A model generated the notes under the pieces. It saw only the letters and a list, made by a program, of their open reading frames with translations. It searched no databases and was not told the DNA's origin. The position numbers and the translations under genes are program-made. Below, piece after piece: positions 467 to 60,201 of a stretch of 64,000 bases of DNA (the first letter of the stretch is position 1; each line of letters opens with the position of its first letter). This stretch comes from an uncultured Candidatus Micrarchaeota archaeon (lineage in GTDB: Archaea > Micrarchaeota > Micrarchaeia > Burarchaeales > Fermentimicrarchaeaceae): contig CAISET010000002.1 of the NCBI GenBank assembly GCA_903884505.1, positions 277,917 through 341,916 on the forward strand. Direction: 5' to 3'.

Positions 467-892
467 TTGGCGCGTGCATTCGGAATGAATGTGGAGTACT
501 GCTCAAAATCGAAGAAAACGATGGGGCTCGATGAGCCCCTCAAATCCAGCGACATAATCTCAATCCACTGCCTGCTCAGCAACGAAACGAAAAACCTTCT
601 CAACAAGAGAAGGCTCGCCCTCCTAAAGCAAGGCGCAGTCCTCATCAACACGGCGCGCCCGGAAATCTGCGACGTTGAGGAAGTGATTTCCCTTGCGAAA
701 AGGGGAAGAATCCAGGCCTATTTCGATGAGCTCCAGGATGACGGGCAGAGGAAGAGGGCGCTCGCAGCAGGCGTATTTGCAACTCCTGACTACGGCTGGA
801 TGACCGAGGAAGCGCAGAAGAATGACGAGGAAATCACGCTGGAGAACATAAGCGCATTTCTGAATGGGGAGCCGCTGCGAACTGTAAATTAG
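467..892 (+). pseudogene. D-isomer-specific 2-hydroxyacid dehydrogenase, C-terminal NAD-binding fragment (same gene as 18..410; frame extends upstream to about nt 362)
   Basis: GIIGYGGIG Rossmann motif lies just upstream in the same frame. The C-terminal domain is typical of the phosphoglycerate/glycerate dehydrogenase family. Confidence 0.6.
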
Positions 893-3170: not shown

Positions 3171-4451
3171 TCACGATGCCTTCGTTGCGATGCCCATCCC
3201 AGTCGGCCTCTTGAAGATGTTGCCCATCTTCACGCCCACGAGGATTTTCACTCCCTTCCCGTCAGCAAGGTCCACGAGCCTCTGCGTGATTATCCCGTCA
3301 AGGACAACCGCGTGAATCCCGCTTCCCTCCTGCAGCGCCCTGATCAAATCGCGCACAGGCATCTCGCTCTTCAGGCCGAGCGACCCATCGTAAAGCCTTG
3401 CCCTCAGCGTGTTCTCCAGTTCGGCAAGGCTCTTCATGAGCCCCTCAGGCACCTGTACCTGTTCAACGGGGGCGGCAGGCGCCTGGGCAGCAGCTGCCTG
3501 CGCCGCTGCAGCAGCAGCGGCCTGCGCATGCAGTGCCTCCTCTCCAGGAAGCTGCAGCGGGACAGCCTTCACCCTCTTCTCAGGGAGCGGCTCCCCGCTC
3601 TCCGTCTTCGGCTTAGGCAGCCCCTCAATCTGCTCCGCAGGCACGCGTGCCCTCAGGCACTTGATTATCTCCTTGCGCGTCAGCTCCTCGACCTCCTTTC
3701 CGCGAGGCGCCCTTGCAACATAGTCTATCTCGCAGGCGTTTGCAATCTCGCGCAGGATGATGTCGCCTCCCCTGTCCCCGTCAAGGAACACGGTGGTCTC
3801 CTTCGCCCTGCACAGTGCCGCAAGCGTCCTCGGCACATTCGCGCCGCCAACCGCCACACTGTTGTTCACGTCGTTCTTCAGCAGGTTCAGGACATCTGCG
3901 CGGCCCTCGACTATTATCACCGAGTCGAAGCCGTCAATCTTTGGCCCTGACGGCAGCCTCTCAGGCCCGTATTCCGAAATCTCGGCAATCTTGACCTCCT
4001 GCCTGACGAGCTCGGAAATCTCCCTGCTCTCAGGAATCTCGGTCGTGAGCAGGTTCTTGAGCAGGCACTTCGCCCTGTCAACCACCTGCTTCCTCTTCAC
4101 GTTGCGCGTGTCCTCTATCTTCTCAACGCCGATCCTCGCATCGCAAGGGCCGACACGGTCGACAGTCTCCAGCGCAGCAGCGAGAATGGAAGTCTCAACC
4201 ATGTCAAGGGAGCTCGGGAGCATAATCTTGCCTATGCTCTTCCCTCCCCTCACCTGCAAATCGACCTCAATCCTCCCGATCCTGCCGTTCTTCTGCAGCT
4301 CGCGCAGGTCGAGCTCGTCGCCAAGCAATCCTTCGGTCTGGCCGAATATGGCGCCCACAACATCGGGCTTCTCCACCATTCCGCCGATCTCAAGGTTAGC
4401 GTAAACGACGTACTTCACTGTGTCAATATACGTTTTTCCCATATTTTTCAC
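3171..4451 (-). CDS. dnaG: archaeal DnaG-like primase (Toprim domain; exosome-associated DnaG)
   Basis: The N-terminus MGKTYIDTVKYVVYANLEIGGMVEKPDVVGAIFGQTEGLLG is the archaeal DnaG signature. Toprim acidic residues are present. Confidence 0.85.
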   Translation of the reverse strand: MKNMGKTYIDTVKYVVYANLEIGGMVEKPDVVGAIFGQTEGLLGDELDLRELQKNGRIGRIEVDLQVRGGKSIGKIMLPSSLDMVETSILAAALETVDRVGPCDARIGVEKIEDTRNVKRKQVVDRAKCLLKNLLTTEIPESREISELVRQEVKIAEISEYGPERLPSGPKIDGFDSVIIVEGRADVLNLLKNDVNNSVAVGGANVPRTLAALCRAKETTVFLDGDRGGDIILREIANACEIDYVARAPRGKEVEELTRKEIIKCLRARVPAEQIEGLPKPKTESGEPLPEKRVKAVPLQLPGEEALHAQAAAAAAAQAAAAQAPAAPVEQVQVPEGLMKSLAELENTLRARLYDGSLGLKSEMPVRDLIRALQEGSGIHAVVLDGIITQRLVDLADGKGVKILVGVKMGNIFKRPTGMGIATKAS

Positions 4452-6777: not shown

Positions 6778-6880
6778 ATCTATGTACTAATTATAAACTC
6801 ATTAGTACTCATTAGTATATTGTTGGGTTCGAATGGATCAATCTATGTACTAATTATAAACTCATTAGTATTCATTAGTA
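6778..6880. repeat. tandem direct repeat: 40-bp unit (atctatgtactaattataaactcattagta[c/t]tcattagta) x2 at 6778-6817 and 6841-6880, separated by a 23-bp spacer
   Basis: Seen directly in the sequence, with internal ctcattagta sub-repeats. It lies at the right edge of the low-GC Fic island. The spacer contains gggttcgaat, which resembles a tRNA T-arm. Confidence 0.8.
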
Positions 6881-6892
6881 CGAGCTAACGGT

Positions 6893-25165: not shown

Positions 25166-25298
25166 GCCGTGGTAGCTCAGCCTGGGAGAGCATTCGAATC
25201 TTTTCTTGGTTTCCAAGAAAAGGTGATGAAGCTGAAGGATTCCCAGACGAGGGGAGCCAGAAACCGAAGGGTCGCAGGTTCAAATCCTGCCCACGGCA
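25166..25298 (+). tRNA. intron-containing tRNA (about 133 nt; anticodon uncertain, possibly CUU/Lys). Intron of about 60 nt in the anticodon loop with a 10-bp hairpin and a GUGAUGA box-C-like motif
   Basis: Acceptor GCCGUGG/CCACGGC+A. D-arm GCUCAGCCUGGGAGAGC. T-arm GCAGGUUCAAAUCCUGC. The two halves are separated by an insert. Confidence 0.7.
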
Positions 25299-25372
25299 CT
25301 GACCCTTTTCCCAATCGCCCGGGTTCGCAGCCCGGCGATATGGTAAAAGCGTCAACGGAAAACGTCATAAAT

Positions 25373-25524
25373 GCGATCGTAGTCTAGCCTGGTAGGACTC
25401 GGCCTTGCCAAGGCCGTGGCCCGGGTTCAAATCCGAACCGCGGAGGGGGACACCCCCTCCTCAGTTTGAGGGTCCTCCGGATCCTCCCCCGTTCGACGGG
25501 GCGGTGAAACTCCCGGCGGTCGCA
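25373..25524 (+). tRNA. tRNA-Gly(GCC) with an ~85-nt intron in the T-arm (between the T-loop and the 3' T-stem)
   Basis: GCGAUCG-UA-GUCUAGCCUGGUAGGAC-U-CGGCC-UUGCCAA-GGCCG-UGGC-CCGGG-UUCAAAU, then [insert with three hairpins], then CCCGG-CGGUCGC-A. Confidence 0.7.
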
Positions 25525-25532
25525 TGTTTTCT

Positions 25533-25689
25533 GCGGTCGTAGTCTAGCCTGGTAGGACTTAGGCCCTCCAATGGCCCTTTTCCCACCGCATATCCGGCTC
25601 CGCCGGGTTGCGCATGGTAAAAGCGCCAGCGGAAAATCCGCTGGCGAAGAGGAAAGCCTATAACCCGGGTTCAAATCCCGGCGGCCGCA
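25533..25689 (+). tRNA. intron-containing tRNA, most likely tRNA-Gly(UCC) with an ~80-nt intron at 37/38. The alternative reading Trp(CCA) is not excluded
   Basis: The 5' half is near-identical to the other Gly tRNAs. UAGGC/GCCUA stem pairs perfectly across the insert. Intact T-arm CCGGGUUCAAAUCCCGG and acceptor GCGGUCG/CGGCCGC+A. Confidence 0.65.
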
Positions 25690-35352: not shown

Positions 35353-37169
35353 TTCCTGCGCCTCTTCGCAGCCACCCTGATTTTCTGCGCCGCCATCGCC
35401 CTTCCCTTCGATATCGCGCGCGTGTAAAGCACGATGCTCAATATCGCGGAGGTTACCAGGAGTATGCTGAGCAGCACTATCACAACGACCAGCGACTCGT
35501 TCAGCTTCTCGACGTTCTCCTGGGCCGGTATTGAGGCAGGCGTCGCTGAAGGCGCCGGGACCGCATTCGGGTTCTCGAATAGCACGAGCATCATCGTGGT
35601 GTCGTTCTCCATCCCATCGGCTATAGATCCGAGCCTAAGCACCGTGCCGGCGTCTCCGCCAGTCAGGTTGTAAAAGCTCGCATGCGCAAAGAAGAGCGCG
35701 GACCAGAGCGTCTTCCCCTTCCTCGCCAGGAACCCGCTTGCCTTCTGCGAGGCGGCGTTCTCCCCTTGGGCGCTATAGTTCGCCGCCCTGAGCGCGCCAA
35801 GCACGTAATCAGCATCATACACCGCGGCCCCGTACTCGCTCGCATTCAATGCCATCTCAGCGCTCGAGAAGTGGAACTGCAGGTCGCTGTCTTCCCCCTG
35901 CGGCCCTGCCATCGCCCCGCGCGCCTCGCCTACGCGTGCAAGCGCCAGGTTCCTGAGCGCCGCCTCATCCGCACCGCTTCCGCCCACTTCGGCAGCCGCG
36001 GAGTAAAGCTCCTTCGAAATCCCGCACCAGCTCTTCGCGAGCAGGGCGTCCTTGTAGAGCACGAGCACCTCCTCGCTGTCATTCACCGCAAGCTCCTGCT
36101 TCTTCACTTCCGCGAGCTTGTTTCTCGCCCATGTTGCGCGCAGGTCCGCCCCCACCCTGAACCCGAGGTTCTCCTTCGTTAATCTTCCGCGGTCAATCCC
36201 GTTTATGCAGCTTCCGACATCTGAAATAAGAAGCGCCAGGTCCTGCCTGTTCGGGCTGCCGTTCTTCACCACTTCCGCATTGATGCGGTTCAGGAAGGCC
36301 GTGTTCGCCGCAGTGTAGAAATACCCATTGGCCAGCATCTCCCCGCTGTCCGCAACATCCTCCCTAAGCAACGGCAGTACGGTTGCCGCCGCTATGCTGT
36401 TGCTTCTTGCCGCATCTTCGGTCTCGTTCGCAGAACTTTCCACCACCCCGCTAGCTATCTCCCCGAACCTCCCGACTCCGCAGCCCGGGCAATCGTAGGA
36501 GTAGGGCTGGAGATGCAGCGGCGCGGGCGTTTCCACGGGCAGCGGCTGCGGGTAAGTGCCCTCCGCAGCGAACGCTATATCCCTGACTTGGGTGATGTTG
36601 TCAACCTCGAATACGGTCACATTGAGCCTGCCCATCAGGCTCACGAGCGTTATCTTATCGAACGTGTCGCTTTCCCGCGGCAGCAGCACGAGTTTTATCC
36701 CGCCAGCAGAGGCCGCCTCGACCTTCTGGTATATGCCGCCAACCGCCCCCACCTTCCCGCCGTCCTCTATGGTTCCAGTTACCGTGAAATCCCCGCGCAG
36801 CGGCCTTCCCTCGAGCGCGGAAATTGTGAGCAGAGTCATCGCGGCTCCCGCGCTTGGGCCGTCAACCTGCCTCGTTTCCCCGACATCCATCGTCAGGAAA
36901 ACATCATAGTCGCTCTCATTCTTCCCGAGGACGGCCATCGCGTTCTCGACCGCCTTCCTTTCGGACTGCTGCGTGTCAATCCCAATCAGCGGGTTGGTCG
37001 AGGTGTATATGTTCCCGGTTCCATTCCTCACATCGACGGTAATAAGTATGAGCACCCCTCCGCCGTCCGTGACTACTGCAGGCACGCGCATGCTCGCATT
37101 AGCCGCGCTGGCCTGCAGCGACGCACAAATAAGCACAAAGGCAAGAACGATTATCGCATTCATCTTCAA
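35349..37169 (-). CDS. membrane-anchored extracytoplasmic Lon-like S16 serine peptidase
   Basis: Signal peptide. VDGPSAGAAMTLL...GGIYQKVEAASAGG (Ser-Lys dyad of the Lon proteolytic domain). C-terminal TM plus basic tail. No AAA module. Confidence 0.65.
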   Translation of the reverse strand: MKMNAIIVLAFVLICASLQASAANASMRVPAVVTDGGGVLILITVDVRNGTGNIYTSTNPLIGIDTQQSERKAVENAMAVLGKNESDYDVFLTMDVGETRQVDGPSAGAAMTLLTISALEGRPLRGDFTVTGTIEDGGKVGAVGGIYQKVEAASAGGIKLVLLPRESDTFDKITLVSLMGRLNVTVFEVDNITQVRDIAFAAEGTYPQPLPVETPAPLHLQPYSYDCPGCGVGRFGEIASGVVESSANETEDAARSNSIAAATVLPLLREDVADSGEMLANGYFYTAANTAFLNRINAEVVKNGSPNRQDLALLISDVGSCINGIDRGRLTKENLGFRVGADLRATWARNKLAEVKKQELAVNDSEEVLVLYKDALLAKSWCGISKELYSAAAEVGGSGADEAALRNLALARVGEARGAMAGPQGEDSDLQFHFSSAEMALNASEYGAAVYDADYVLGALRAANYSAQGENAASQKASGFLARKGKTLWSALFFAHASFYNLTGGDAGTVLRLGSIADGMENDTTMMLVLFENPNAVPAPSATPASIPAQENVEKLNESLVVVIVLLSILLVTSAILSIVLYTRAISKGRAMAAQKIRVAAKRRRK

Positions 37170-38101
37170 GCAATCGCCTCCACTGCGGCAGCGATGCGCG
37201 CCTTCGCCTCAGGCTTCGCGAGGAGCGCCCTTTCGCCGGCCTCAAATACAAATTCACGCTCGGCTTTAATAACAGCTTCGCCCTCCGCTCCTGCGGCGAC
37301 AGAGCCCGCAACCGAGACAGGCACGTACTGCATGCCTATGCTCAGGAAGTACTGCCCGCTTGAGACTCCGCCAGAGAACTTCGAAGCCTTCAATCTCACC
37401 TTAATCTCCTTCCCGCTCCTCAGCGAGCCGGGCTCGGCAAGCACGAATCCCCTCTCCAGCTCCTCGGCTTCCGCGCCCTTCATAGCCACCCCAACCCTGC
37501 TGCCGCACGATGCCTCCTCCACGTCCTCGTCCTGCACCTGCAGCGACTTCGCAACCACTTTCTTCCCAGTAGGGTAGAGCTCGAGCTCCTGGTGCTTCCT
37601 CACGCTTCCCCTTGCAACTATCCCCAGCACAACAGCGCCGACGCTCTTCACTGCAAACGAGTGGTCTATCGGGATTTTCGTGGGGCCGGCAGCCCGCTCA
37701 ACCTTGACCCCGCTCACCTTCCCCCTGATCAGGTTCGCATCCTTCGCGACGAACTCGTACTTTTCCAGCGCGGTCCCCTTCAAAAACGCTTTCACTGCTT
37801 GCTCATCCGCCCCTTCTCCAACCGCAATAAGCCCATTTTTCTTCCCGAGCAAATCGAGCGCAACAACCGTCTCCCCGAAGAACCTGTCAACCTCATTCAC
37901 CACAAGCACGACAAAATCCGCCGGGTTTATGCAGTGGAGCAGCGGCTGCAGCTTCTCGGGGTAAAGGGTTGGCTCGAAGAAGCTGACCACCTCCCCCTCT
38001 GCCTTCAGGTGGTAAATCGTGAAATCGCTCGCTGTCCCCTTTTTCGCAATCTCCTTACCGATGTTCTTGTCGCCCAGCAGCGCGACGTTCAAGTGGTCCA
38101 T
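37166..38101 (-). CDS. EF-Tu/EF1A-like GTPase-fold protein with a degenerate P-loop
   Basis: ALLGDKNIGKEIAKKGT sits in place of GHVDHGKST. A beta-barrel domain-2-like region follows. The ORF-table start (38230) would overlap the tRNA, so the internal ATG at 38101 was chosen. Confidence 0.45.
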   Translation of the reverse strand: MDHLNVALLGDKNIGKEIAKKGTASDFTIYHLKAEGEVVSFFEPTLYPEKLQPLLHCINPADFVVLVVNEVDRFFGETVVALDLLGKKNGLIAVGEGADEQAVKAFLKGTALEKYEFVAKDANLIRGKVSGVKVERAAGPTKIPIDHSFAVKSVGAVVLGIVARGSVRKHQELELYPTGKKVVAKSLQVQDEDVEEASCGSRVGVAMKGAEAEELERGFVLAEPGSLRSGKEIKVRLKASKFSGGVSSGQYFLSIGMQYVPVSVAGSVAAGAEGEAVIKAEREFVFEAGERALLAKPEAKARIAAAVEAIA

Positions 38102-38118
38102 ATTCTCATCAATTTGAA

Positions 38119-38278
38119 TGCGGCCGCCGGGATATTCAGCGAAGCTGAATGCGCGTGCGCGCACGCAACCTGCATTTGAACCCGGGTTATAAGCTTCTTC
38201 CGGTTTCTTTTCCAGGGTTTTCTTTCCCAAAGAAAAGCCTTGGGAAGCTCATGTCCTACCAGGCTAGACTACGGCCGC
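38119..38278 (-). tRNA. tRNA-Gly(CCC) with two introns: about 44 nt at 37/38 and about 42 nt in the T-arm after the T-loop
   Basis: Minus strand GCGGCCG-UA-GUCUAGCCUGGUAGGAC-A-UGAGC-UUCCCA|intron|A-GCUUA-UAAC-CCGGG-UUCAAAU|intron|CCCGG-CGGCCGC-A. Confidence 0.65.
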
Positions 38279-59313: not shown

Positions 59314-60201
59314 ATGCTAAAGCTCGTTGTCCTCGGCAGTTCAGCAGCGGTTCCGAGCACTGAAAGGGGCCTCTCGGCAATCGGCCTCCGCTACGAGGGC
59401 GACGTCTACCTCTTCGATTGCGGGGAGGGGACGCAGAGGCAGATGATGAAGTACGGCCTCAGCTTTTTCAAGGTCAAGGCAATCTTCATCACCCACACGC
59501 ACGCGGACCACATAGTCGGAGTTGCGGGCCTCGCGCAGACGCTCGACCTCTCCGGGAGAACGGAGCCTCTCCCAATCTTCTGCCCCGCGGGGCAGGAGCG
59601 CGACATAGAGGCGCTCCTCAGCATCAGCAAGTACTCCTACCAGATTGAGGTGCGCGGAATCGGCGAGGGCGAGATTCTCAAAGGCAAGGGCTTCTCGGTT
59701 TCCGCATTCCCGGTCGCGCACTCGCGCCCCTCACTCGGCTACGTCTTCGAGACCGGCCCGAGGCGCAATTTCGACGAGGAGAAGTGCGAAAAGCTCGGGA
59801 TAAAGGGGAAGATGTTCGGCGAGCTCGAGGAGAAAGGCGAGGCTGTGGTGAAGGGGAAAAAAATCCGCTACCAGGATGTCACCACCGAAAAGCCGGGCAT
59901 CAAAGTCGCATACACCGGCGACTGCGCCCCGGGTGAATCCACGGTTCTCGCAGCGAAAGGCGCGGACCTGCTAATCCACGAGGCGACCTACGGCTCGGAC
60001 CACGAGAAGGAGGCTTTCGAGAACAAGCACTCAACCGCGGCGCAGGCAGCGGCAATCGCCAAGAAAGCTGGCGTGAAGCGCCTGCTCCTCACGCACATCA
60101 GCGGTAGATACAAGGAAACCGCGCAGCTGGAGAAGGAGGCTCGCGAAATCTTCCCTGACTCAGATGCTGCCGAAGACGGGGCCGAAGCCCTGCTCAAATA
60201 A
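59314..60201 (+). CDS. rnz: ribonuclease Z (tRNA 3'-processing endonuclease, metallo-beta-lactamase fold)
   Basis: HTHADH zinc motif. Overall length and spacing typical of short-form RNase Z. Confidence 0.8.
   Translation: MLKLVVLGSSAAVPSTERGLSAIGLRYEGDVYLFDCGEGTQRQMMKYGLSFFKVKAIFITHTHADHIVGVAGLAQTLDLSGRTEPLPIFCPAGQERDIEALLSISKYSYQIEVRGIGEGEILKGKGFSVSAFPVAHSRPSLGYVFETGPRRNFDEEKCEKLGIKGKMFGELEEKGEAVVKGKKIRYQDVTTEKPGIKVAYTGDCAPGESTVLAAKGADLLIHEATYGSDHEKEAFENKHSTAAQAAAIAKKAGVKRLLLTHISGRYKETAQLEKEAREIFPDSDAAEDGAEALLK

Follow-up and report, generated by a model that had tools for sequence, protein, structure and literature searches.

Four interrupted tRNA genes with six predicted bulge-helix-bulge introns and a dispersed hairpin repeat in a Micrarchaeota archaeon

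Introduction

Disrupted tRNAs were described for the ARMAN-2 lineage in 2011, with introns at position 59/60 and in the combination 53/54 plus 59/60, and the ε2-type splicing endonuclease EndA of ARMAN-2 was shown to cleave in vitro an hBH intron located at 59/60 (Fujishima et al., 2011, PMC3239211). Positions 30/31 and 59/60 are both recognised archaeal intron positions (PMC4090602), and transposition of tRNA introns in Thermoproteales has been described in reviews (PMC4033280, PMC4090602). Here we analyze a stretch of 64,000 nucleotides (the window) from an uncultured Candidatus Micrarchaeota archaeon, which carries a cluster of three tRNA genes on the plus strand and a fourth tRNA gene on the minus strand. 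Judged from the sequence, these are very probably working Micrarchaeota tRNA genes that are interrupted by six protein-spliced introns of the bulge-helix-bulge (BHB) type. Since disrupted tRNAs, 59/60 introns and a broad-specificity ε2 enzyme were already described for the lineage in 2011, such a cluster is ordinary for Micrarchaeota. A hairpin repeat found in one intron and in one spacer is the sole feature of the cluster that deserves follow-up.

Results

Four tRNA genes contain six introns

A BHB scan combined with reading of the sequence identified four tRNA genes in the window, all of them interrupted, with six introns in total. The genes lie where the original prediction had located them, three on the plus strand and a tRNA-Gly(CCC) on the minus strand at 38119-38278; the observation that all four are interrupted was confirmed, with corrections to details. 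The features are as follows (nt, nucleotides; bp, base pairs; helix lengths refer to the BHB motif).

25166..25298, plus strand: tRNA-Phe(GAA), exons 25166-25196, 25231-25237 and 25263-25298
25197..25230, plus strand: tRNA-Phe intron 1, 34 nt, position 30/31, strict hBHBh' motif, central helix CAUU/GAUG with 4/4 pairs, outer helix 2 bp, inner helix 12 bp
25238..25262, plus strand: tRNA-Phe intron 2, 25 nt, canonical position 37/38, relaxed BHB, central helix with 3/4 pairs, outer helix 1 bp until intron 1 is removed, no contiguous inner helix
25299..25372, plus strand: Phe-Gly spacer, 74 nt, with copy 1 of the hairpin repeat (model match 25299-25366)
25373..25524, plus strand: tRNA-Gly(GCC), exons 25373-25431 and 25511-25524
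25432..25510, plus strand: tRNA-Gly(GCC) intron, 79 nt, position 59/60 in the T-loop, strict BHB, central helix UUCA/UGAA with 4/4 pairs, outer helix the 5-bp T-stem, inner helix 3 bp
25533..25689, plus strand: tRNA-Gly(UCC), exons 25533-25570 and 25655-25689
25571..25654, plus strand: tRNA-Gly(UCC) intron, 84 nt, position 37/38, central helix CCUC/GAGG with 4/4 pairs, outer helix 5 bp, inner helix 1 bp, with copy 2 of the hairpin repeat at 25571-25640
38119..38278, minus strand: tRNA-Gly(CCC), exons 38278-38241, 38195-38175 and 38132-38119
38196..38240, minus strand: tRNA-Gly(CCC) intron 1, 45 nt, position 37/38, strict BHB, central helix UUCC/GGAA with 4/4 pairs, outer helix 6 bp, inner helix 2 bp
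38133..38174, minus strand: tRNA-Gly(CCC) intron 2, 42 nt, position 59/60 in the T-loop, strict BHB, central helix UUCA/UGAA with 4/4 pairs, outer helix 5 bp, inner helix 2 bp

Every intron folds with its flanking exon into a BHB. The original prediction had named such motifs at its junctions as a check; they are present at all six, and at five of these they are strict, which means that a perfect 4-bp central helix is flanked by 3-nt bulges. The sixth, at intron 2 of tRNA-Phe, is relaxed, with three of four pairs. In the 37/38 introns the central helix is formed by positions 32-35 and the intron 3' end, in the 59/60 introns by U54-A57 and the UGAA at the intron 3' end, with the T-stem as outer helix; in tRNA-Gly(GCC), for example, U54-A57 reads UUCA. 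In-silico removal of the introns yielded canonical cloverleaves with a 7-nt anticodon loop, all stems paired and exons intact for all four genes. The spliced sequences were scored by ARAGORN at 122.9 for Phe(GAA), 122.3 for Gly(GCC), 115.8 for Gly(UCC) and 124.3 for Gly(CCC). Folding z-scores were -4.55 for intron 1 of tRNA-Phe, -2.77 for the Gly(GCC) intron, -4.63 for the Gly(UCC) intron and -5.52 for the Phe-Gly spacer. The cluster sequence is 100% identical across three independent ENA assemblies and is therefore not an assembly artefact.

For the Gly genes the details claimed earlier were largely borne out. The insert in the T-arm of tRNA-Gly(GCC) stands, with a length of 79 nt by BHB instead of ~85 nt, and BHB geometry places the T-arm insertion site at 59/60 and not at 60/61, the mature sequence being identical either way. 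Both interruptions claimed for tRNA-Gly(CCC), a 37/38 intron and a T-arm insert of ~42 nt, were recovered with lengths of 45 and 42 nt and strict BHBs, and the insert of ~80 nt at 37/38 in the gene starting at 25533 proved to be 84 nt long, with a strict central helix.

Intron prediction and behavior of standard tools

The BHB layout used in the scanner reportedly goes back to Marck and Grosjean 2003. The 5' bulge consists of the last two exon bases and the first intron base, the 3' bulge of the last two intron bases and the first exon base, and in the central helix the four exon bases before the 5' bulge pair with intron bases -6 to -3. The scanner reproduced the canonical 37/38 junctions, which validates this layout. 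BHB-like matches of some kind are frequent in shuffled sequences, so the scanner alone is no proof. Support comes from the fact that the 4-bp helix falls exactly at junctions fixed independently by the exons; the chance of four pairs at a fixed junction, calculated from the window base composition and not from a shuffle test, is ~0.017 for each. As a second approach, BHB-supported intron combinations were enumerated blindly and ranked by ARAGORN score, which gave the same introns for tRNA-Gly(GCC), tRNA-Gly(UCC) and tRNA-Gly(CCC).

Standard searches performed poorly on these genes. At the gathering threshold the Rfam tRNA model detected 25166-25298 (47.9 bits) and 25533-25689 (45.9 bits), in both cases with the anticodon arm expanded by a large insert, and at a relaxed threshold it reported the Gly(GCC) gene as an intronless misfold (28.1 bits). 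The Gly(CCC) gene at 38119-38278, legible directly in the sequence, was not found by default ARAGORN or by Rfam, even when relaxed. Default ARAGORN returned a misfolded intronless 72-nt Gly(GCC) and a spurious Phe(AAA) at 25600-25688; with introns enabled, the anticodons that it called disagreed (Pyl/Lys, Arg/Trp), as it permits just one anticodon-loop intron. Motif scans found no further tRNAs in the window, and two motifs resembling a T-arm, at 6826 and 52826, do not belong to tRNAs.

Mature tRNA-Gly sequences are conserved while their introns differ

Genomes were scanned with the shared 5' half of the Gly genes as query, which gave 120 loci, mostly from Micrarchaeota metagenome-assembled genomes (MAGs). 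In one of them, L045, the gene order Phe - Gly(GCC) - Gly(UCC) is found beside the same kinase gene as in the window. There the tRNA-Phe is intronless, the Phe-Gly spacer is 1 nt long as compared to 74 nt in the window, and Gly(GCC) and Gly(UCC) each contain one 59/60 intron of 41-43 nt, Gly(UCC) being without a 37/38 intron. Spliced tRNA-Gly(GCC) of the window matches its L045 counterpart at 70 of 73 positions, including a compensatory change of G29-C43 to U-A, and tRNA-Gly(UCC) matches at 71 of 73, with the same anticodon loop in both. Anticodon UCC, favored for this gene by the original prediction, is thus upheld by an orthologue that has the same anticodon arm and no 37/38 intron; CCA (Trp) was rejected, since it leaves an A·C mismatch and no matching 3' stem and the orthologue is UCC. 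The Gly(CCC) gene agrees at 66 of 73 positions with that of locus L009, which lacks the 37/38 intron. With mature tRNAs 90-97% identical and introns that differ, intron content turns over quickly.

The T-loop intron of tRNA-Gly(CCC) is homologous to those of L045 Gly(GCC), L045 Gly(UCC) and L009 Gly(CCC). Introns at 59/60 with a 4-bp central and a 5-bp outer helix are present at at least seven further MAG tRNA-Gly loci (L009, L010, L032, L035, L045 twice, L094), most of them labelled Micrarchaeota, and such introns with three of four pairs at L020, L088 and L091. The pair of introns at 53/54 and 59/60, as in ARMAN-2 tRNA-Pro, was found in two MAG loci.

Since these orthologues keep 90-97% identity in their mature sequences despite differing introns, we consider it very unlikely that the genes are decaying pseudogenes which were broken by repeat insertions and are out of use. 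Such decay would agree with the poor or missing detection by standard tools, with the presence of dispersed repeat copies as one intron and one spacer (see below), and with the anticodon loop of Gly(UCC), CCUCCAA (25565-25571), which contains C32 and C33. U33 is almost universal in tRNA anticodon loops. Against decay, all exons are intact, all stems pair once spliced, and the 3' ends of the introns can pair with exon bases at just the places that a BHB demands. Moreover, the C33 loop is widespread in the lineage: CCUCCAA is present in 15 of 47 Gly(UCC) genes of other MAGs, one of them labelled Hadarchaeota (loci L022, L023, L045, L048, L051, L066, L071, L074, L080, L093, L110, L114, L117, L119). 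A literature search gave no description of this C33 loop.

Three further observations concern these genes and introns. The homologous T-loop introns of 41-43 nt, which occur across Gly isoacceptors and genera (window 38133-38174, minus strand; L045 845-885 and 966-1008; L009), share an internal hairpin AUUCAGC-NNN-GCUGAAU. This hairpin sequesters the UGAA of the BHB helix and copies the UUCA of the T-loop, which suggests two competing folds. In addition, U-rich/A-rich hairpins CUUUUCUU...AAGAAAAG are located at window 25200-25222 and 38237-38216 (minus strand) and in introns of L023, L034, L072, L088, L091, L094 and L150; recurring across many Micrarchaeota in tRNA introns that are otherwise unrelated, they may represent a second intron motif family. 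Finally, a mechanically called open reading frame (ORF) at 37166-38230 (minus strand) crosses the Gly(CCC) gene. Its real start is probably an ATG at ~38091, just downstream of the tRNA, and its protein matches domain II of EF-Tu/SelB only.

The Gly(UCC) intron and the Phe-Gly spacer contain copies of a covarying hairpin repeat

The sequence CCCTTTTCCCA ... ATGGTAAAAGCG.CA.CGGAAAA is common to the Phe-Gly spacer and the Gly(UCC) intron, which differ in the self-complementary sequence in between; the original prediction had noticed the insert in the gene but missed its homology to the upstream spacer. A metagenome scan with two conserved blocks returned 29 contigs, of which ~16 carry true relatives and extended the consensus, while the others seem to be chance matches in coding DNA. 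The repeat is ~70 nt long and has the consensus (A)UAAC-C-CUUUU-C-CCA-[covarying stem-loop]-UGG-U-AAAAG-C-GUUA-ACGGAAAA. It is seen as CCCUUUUCCCA ... AUGGUAAAAGCGUUAACGGAAAA in the window at 25299-25366 and 25571-25640 and among the loci L127-L154.

Thirteen distinct copies align to one long hairpin with compensatory changes in 10 of 19 pairs. Paired cells make up 94.3% of the alignment as compared to 79% in shuffles, and the covariation score is 0.39, against 0.13 when shuffled and at most 0.14 with partners slid. Nine invariant pairs of the lower stem were fixed by the search pattern, and their invariance is partly due to ascertainment. The covariance model built for the repeat (R1) detects only two copies in the window, with 79.7 bits in the spacer and 73.8 bits in the Gly(UCC) intron, and 16 strong and three weaker copies in the metagenome contigs. 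It found no match in ~700 kb of GTDB MAG loci, mostly Micrarchaeota, which points to a clade-restricted repeat. A search of Rfam 15 gave chance-level matches only, the best being an unrelated bacterial motif (17.9 bits, E = 0.4), and viral contigs contained no match.

In the window and the metagenome contigs the repeat is found in introns of six tRNA species, Gly(UCC), Ala(UGC), Glu(CUC), His(GUG), Thr(UGU) and Lys(CUU). All six carry it at 37/38, and another tRNA-Glu at 59/60. Two tRNA-Ala(UGC) genes located in the 16S-23S rRNA spacer of different populations contain different numbers of units: the 37/38 intron of L128 (883-1145) is 141 nt long with two tandem 62-nt units, that of L141 (1439-1630) is 79 nt long with one unit, and both genes also have a 59/60 intron of 43-44 nt. 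Copies of the repeat lie directly 3' of tRNAs in the window, L148 and L137, ~130 nt downstream behind another tandem repeat in L132, and also in plain intergenic DNA. Every copy that is associated with a tRNA is oriented like that tRNA. In introns, the copies sit in strict BHBs to which the tRNA and a short, variable linker on the 3' side contribute, and no more than ~1 nt lies between the 5' edge of the repeat and the 5' splice site, L138 with a partial extra copy in between being the exception. No BHB was found at the ends of spacer and intergenic copies. The same repeat core, with one difference in ~45 nt, is present in the window spacer, an intron of L137 and intergenic DNA of L144, and neither window copy is present in the syntenic locus L045.

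With a dispersed repeat copy at its core, the 37/38 intron of Gly(UCC) looks like a lineage-specific insertion. We infer that the repeat is a clade-restricted, duplicating hairpin element that would be tolerated as an intron at any site that allows a BHB to form, and that it may be mobile. A more specific proposal, which we offer tentatively and hold to be possible but short of probable, is that one Micrarchaeota clade harbors a small element, mobile or duplicating, which inserts in or beside tRNA genes and persists as a spliced intron where its 3' flank completes a BHB. If true, this would provide a concrete sequence vehicle for archaeal tRNA intron gain at canonical sites as well as non-canonical ones, and the origin of such introns would become testable.

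The repeat also bears on a different reading of Gly(UCC), according to which the gene is a cis-adjacent split tRNA, with a 5' half ending at CCCUUUU, a 3' half transcribed from a promoter-like GGTAAAAGCG box within the 'intron', and both halves joined in trans. The same module, CCCTTTTCCCA ... ATGGTAAAAGCG, follows the 3' end of tRNA-Phe and is also located at about -30 from tRNA-Gly(GCC), like a terminator plus promoter. We nevertheless regard a split gene as highly improbable: the halves are on one strand and 84 nt apart, long complementarity between leader and trailer is absent, with an inner helix of 1 bp, and T4 runs are also present within the introns of tRNA-Phe and tRNA-Gly(CCC). Furthermore, the module occurs twice in tandem in a tRNA-Ala intron, its intergenic copies have no consistent orientation to neighboring ORFs, and its stem covaries as that of a structured element would. 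For the same last three reasons, a reading of the repeat as a terminator-plus-promoter cassette is not supported.

Two side observations were made at repeat loci. In L149 (6290-6415, minus strand) a duplicated 13-nt stretch of the tRNA-Thr(UGU) 5' end, GAGCCCCCGTAGC, precedes the hairpin repeat that lies upstream of this tRNA, an arrangement that looks like an integration scar. A different repeat of ~57 nt, AACCUUUCUUUGGUUGCUCGUGGAUGAAAUUGGUGAAGCGAGCAUAUCCUAAGAAA, is present twice in tandem in L132 (2020-2150, minus strand) and L134 (430-560, plus strand), in L132 between tRNA-His and the hairpin repeat.

tRNA-Phe contains two introns separated by a 7-nt exon

The gene starting at 25166 had been recognised as interrupted, and the 10-bp hairpin noted in its insert lies within the 12-bp inner helix of intron 1; the single insert of ~60 nt is replaced here by two introns and a 7-nt exon, and the identity of the gene as tRNA-Phe(GAA) had been missed. 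Its body is similar to archaeal tRNA-Phe, with CUGAAG inside the former 'insert'. The 7-nt exon GCUGAAG (25231-25237) represents positions 31-37. A single excision never yields a loop with U33, a purine at position 37 and a closed 31-39 pair, and removal of two introns gives a perfect 5-bp stem UUCGG/CCGAA and the loop CUGAAGA. The spliced sequence is the same as the intronless tRNA-Phe of the syntenic L045 (711-784; Rfam 70.4 bits) at 71 of 74 positions, and this orthologous mature sequence uniquely fixes the junction of intron 2. That the gene instead has a single anticodon-loop intron of ~59 nt and encodes tRNA-Lys(CUU), a CUA suppressor or tRNA-Pro(CGG) is scarcely credible: ARAGORN with introns enabled does read CUA, or CUU if the intron is fixed at 37/38, and blind enumeration scores Pro(CGG) at 123.3, but the single-intron readings leave an A31·C39 mismatch, CUU at 37/38 also has U37, and CUA and CUU have no BHB at their junctions, whereas two introns give the stem, the loop and the orthologue match just described. 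A UGAUGA..CUGA pair in this gene was rejected as box C/D or K-loop, as the spacing is 2 nt and the BHB helix and the anticodon loop account for both motifs.

C25-U28 are recruited into the BHB of the 30/31 intron, so that neither the D-stem nor the anticodon stem can form alongside it; thus, a non-cloverleaf fold is needed. In a constrained fold after removal of intron 1 the anticodon stem is present and the 37/38 intron lies in a relaxed motif. Fold geometry therefore suggests that splicing of tRNA-Phe is ordered: the 30/31 intron would be removed first, after which the anticodon stem would form and present the 37/38 intron.

Predicted maturation pathway and points against it

The three plus-strand genes are most likely co-transcribed, since tRNA-Gly(GCC) and tRNA-Gly(UCC) are only 8 nt apart; a TATA-like TTATTAAAA box is located ~30 nt upstream of tRNA-Phe. 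RNase P and tRNase Z would trim the tRNA ends. CCA is not encoded in the genes, so it has to be added post-transcriptionally. Cleavage in the two 3-nt bulges would be the work of a broad-specificity splicing endonuclease, after which the exons would be joined by an RtcB-type ligase. For the endonuclease the ε2 type is expected; this assignment is taken from the lineage, because the window contains no such gene. A relaxed-specificity endonuclease, as the pathway would require, fits the literature on the ε2 EndA of ARMAN-2. One candidate 3'-end processing enzyme is encoded in the window at 59314-60201 (plus strand), a metallo-β-lactamase protein with a match to the tRNase Z N-terminal domain.

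Several points weigh against four working, spliced genes. Splicing is read only from the DNA sequence and the predicted BHB geometry, and the window encodes neither an EndA-family protein, among the 62 ORFs scanned, nor a splicing ligase. C33 in Gly(UCC) could mean impaired function, and the inner helix of its intron is just 1 bp long. The BHB of intron 2 in tRNA-Phe is relaxed, with three of four central pairs and a non-contiguous inner helix, and the near-tied Pro(CGG) solution for this gene, with two weak BHBs, is rejected by the orthologue only.

Lineage and further features of the window

The protein neighbors of the tRNA genes place the host in Micrarchaeota. For DnaG primase (3171-4451, minus strand) the best matches that carry a name, at 58-72% identity, come from Micrarchaeota/Micrarchaeia MAGs, closer matches reaching 87%, and L017 (labelled Micrarchaeia) has a DnaG at 69%. 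L045 (labelled Micrarchaeota) and L009 (Candidatus ainarchaeum sp.) share neighboring genes with the window at 62-72% amino-acid identity. ARMAN/Micrarchaeota had been among the lineages originally considered, and the DnaG matches and syntenic MAG contigs agree with it. The window encodes archaeal DnaG, PriS/PriL, Cdc48, LonB, aIF2α and GINS. Comparison of deoxyhypusine synthase did not help in placing the lineage. For the ADP-dependent kinase, a neighbor of the tRNA genes, the genome scan gave no relative for synteny, and its closest homologue (69% identity) lies on a contig without a tRNA cluster.

Elsewhere in the window, the catalytic and NAD-binding domains of a D-2-hydroxyacid dehydrogenase are found in two consecutive ORFs (18-410 and 467-892, plus strand), which may reflect a frameshift, a pseudogene or a sequencing error. 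The AT-rich intergenic region at 6782-6882 contains two direct copies of ctatgtactaattataaactcattagta.tcattagta, ~62 nt apart.

Discussion

The cluster offers natural substrates for a broad-specificity endonuclease: long T-loop introns, a 30/31 BHB that competes with the D-stem, and a 7-nt exon that implies ordered splicing. Default tools called two of the four genes correctly and missed one completely. Unless prediction is BHB-aware, tRNA complements and completeness estimates of DPANN MAGs will be biased.

Known systems resemble parts of this locus. The box C/D RNA in the archaeal pre-tRNA-Trp intron is, like the repeat, a structured and conserved RNA module in a tRNA intron; in contrast to it, the repeat has no C (RUGAUGA) or D (CUGA) boxes. 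The split and tri-split tRNAs of Nanoarchaeum equitans and Caldivirga maquilingensis likewise have identical Gly 5' parts and BHB-like junctions at 37/38 and 30/31, whereas the pieces in the window are contiguous, in order and on one strand, and long complementary leaders and trailers are absent.

In Thermoproteales (Sugahara 2008; Fujishima 2010, as covered in PMC4033280 and PMC4090602) several introns per tRNA also occur, including 30/31 and 59/60, and, as for the repeat, similar introns are found in different tRNA species, in canonical as well as non-canonical sites. The window belongs to a different phylum, presumably with another endonuclease type. Unlike in Thermoproteales, the introns here have in common a defined hairpin that covaries and is also present outside introns, in tRNA flanks, tandem arrays and intergenic DNA.

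The closest system is Candidatus Micrarchaeum acidiphilum (ARMAN-2), with its disrupted tRNA genes and its ε2 splicing endonuclease (Fujishima et al. 2011, PMC3239211; Hirata et al. 2012, PMC3488258). The window represents a different organism with ~57% GC, whose neighbor proteins are only 35-72% identical to those of the compared syntenic MAG contigs, and other tRNAs are hit, namely Phe and all three Gly isoacceptors. T-loop introns are 42-79 nt long in the window as compared to 13 nt in ARMAN-2 tRNA-Cys, and the ε2 endonuclease of ARMAN-2 has no EndA-family counterpart among the 62 ORFs scanned in the window. Both belong to the same phylum and have most tRNA genes interrupted, with T-loop introns at 59/60 and BHB motifs that are strict in some cases and relaxed in others. 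Very short internal exons are likewise common to both, and ARMAN-2 tRNA-Pro has introns at 53/54 and 59/60.

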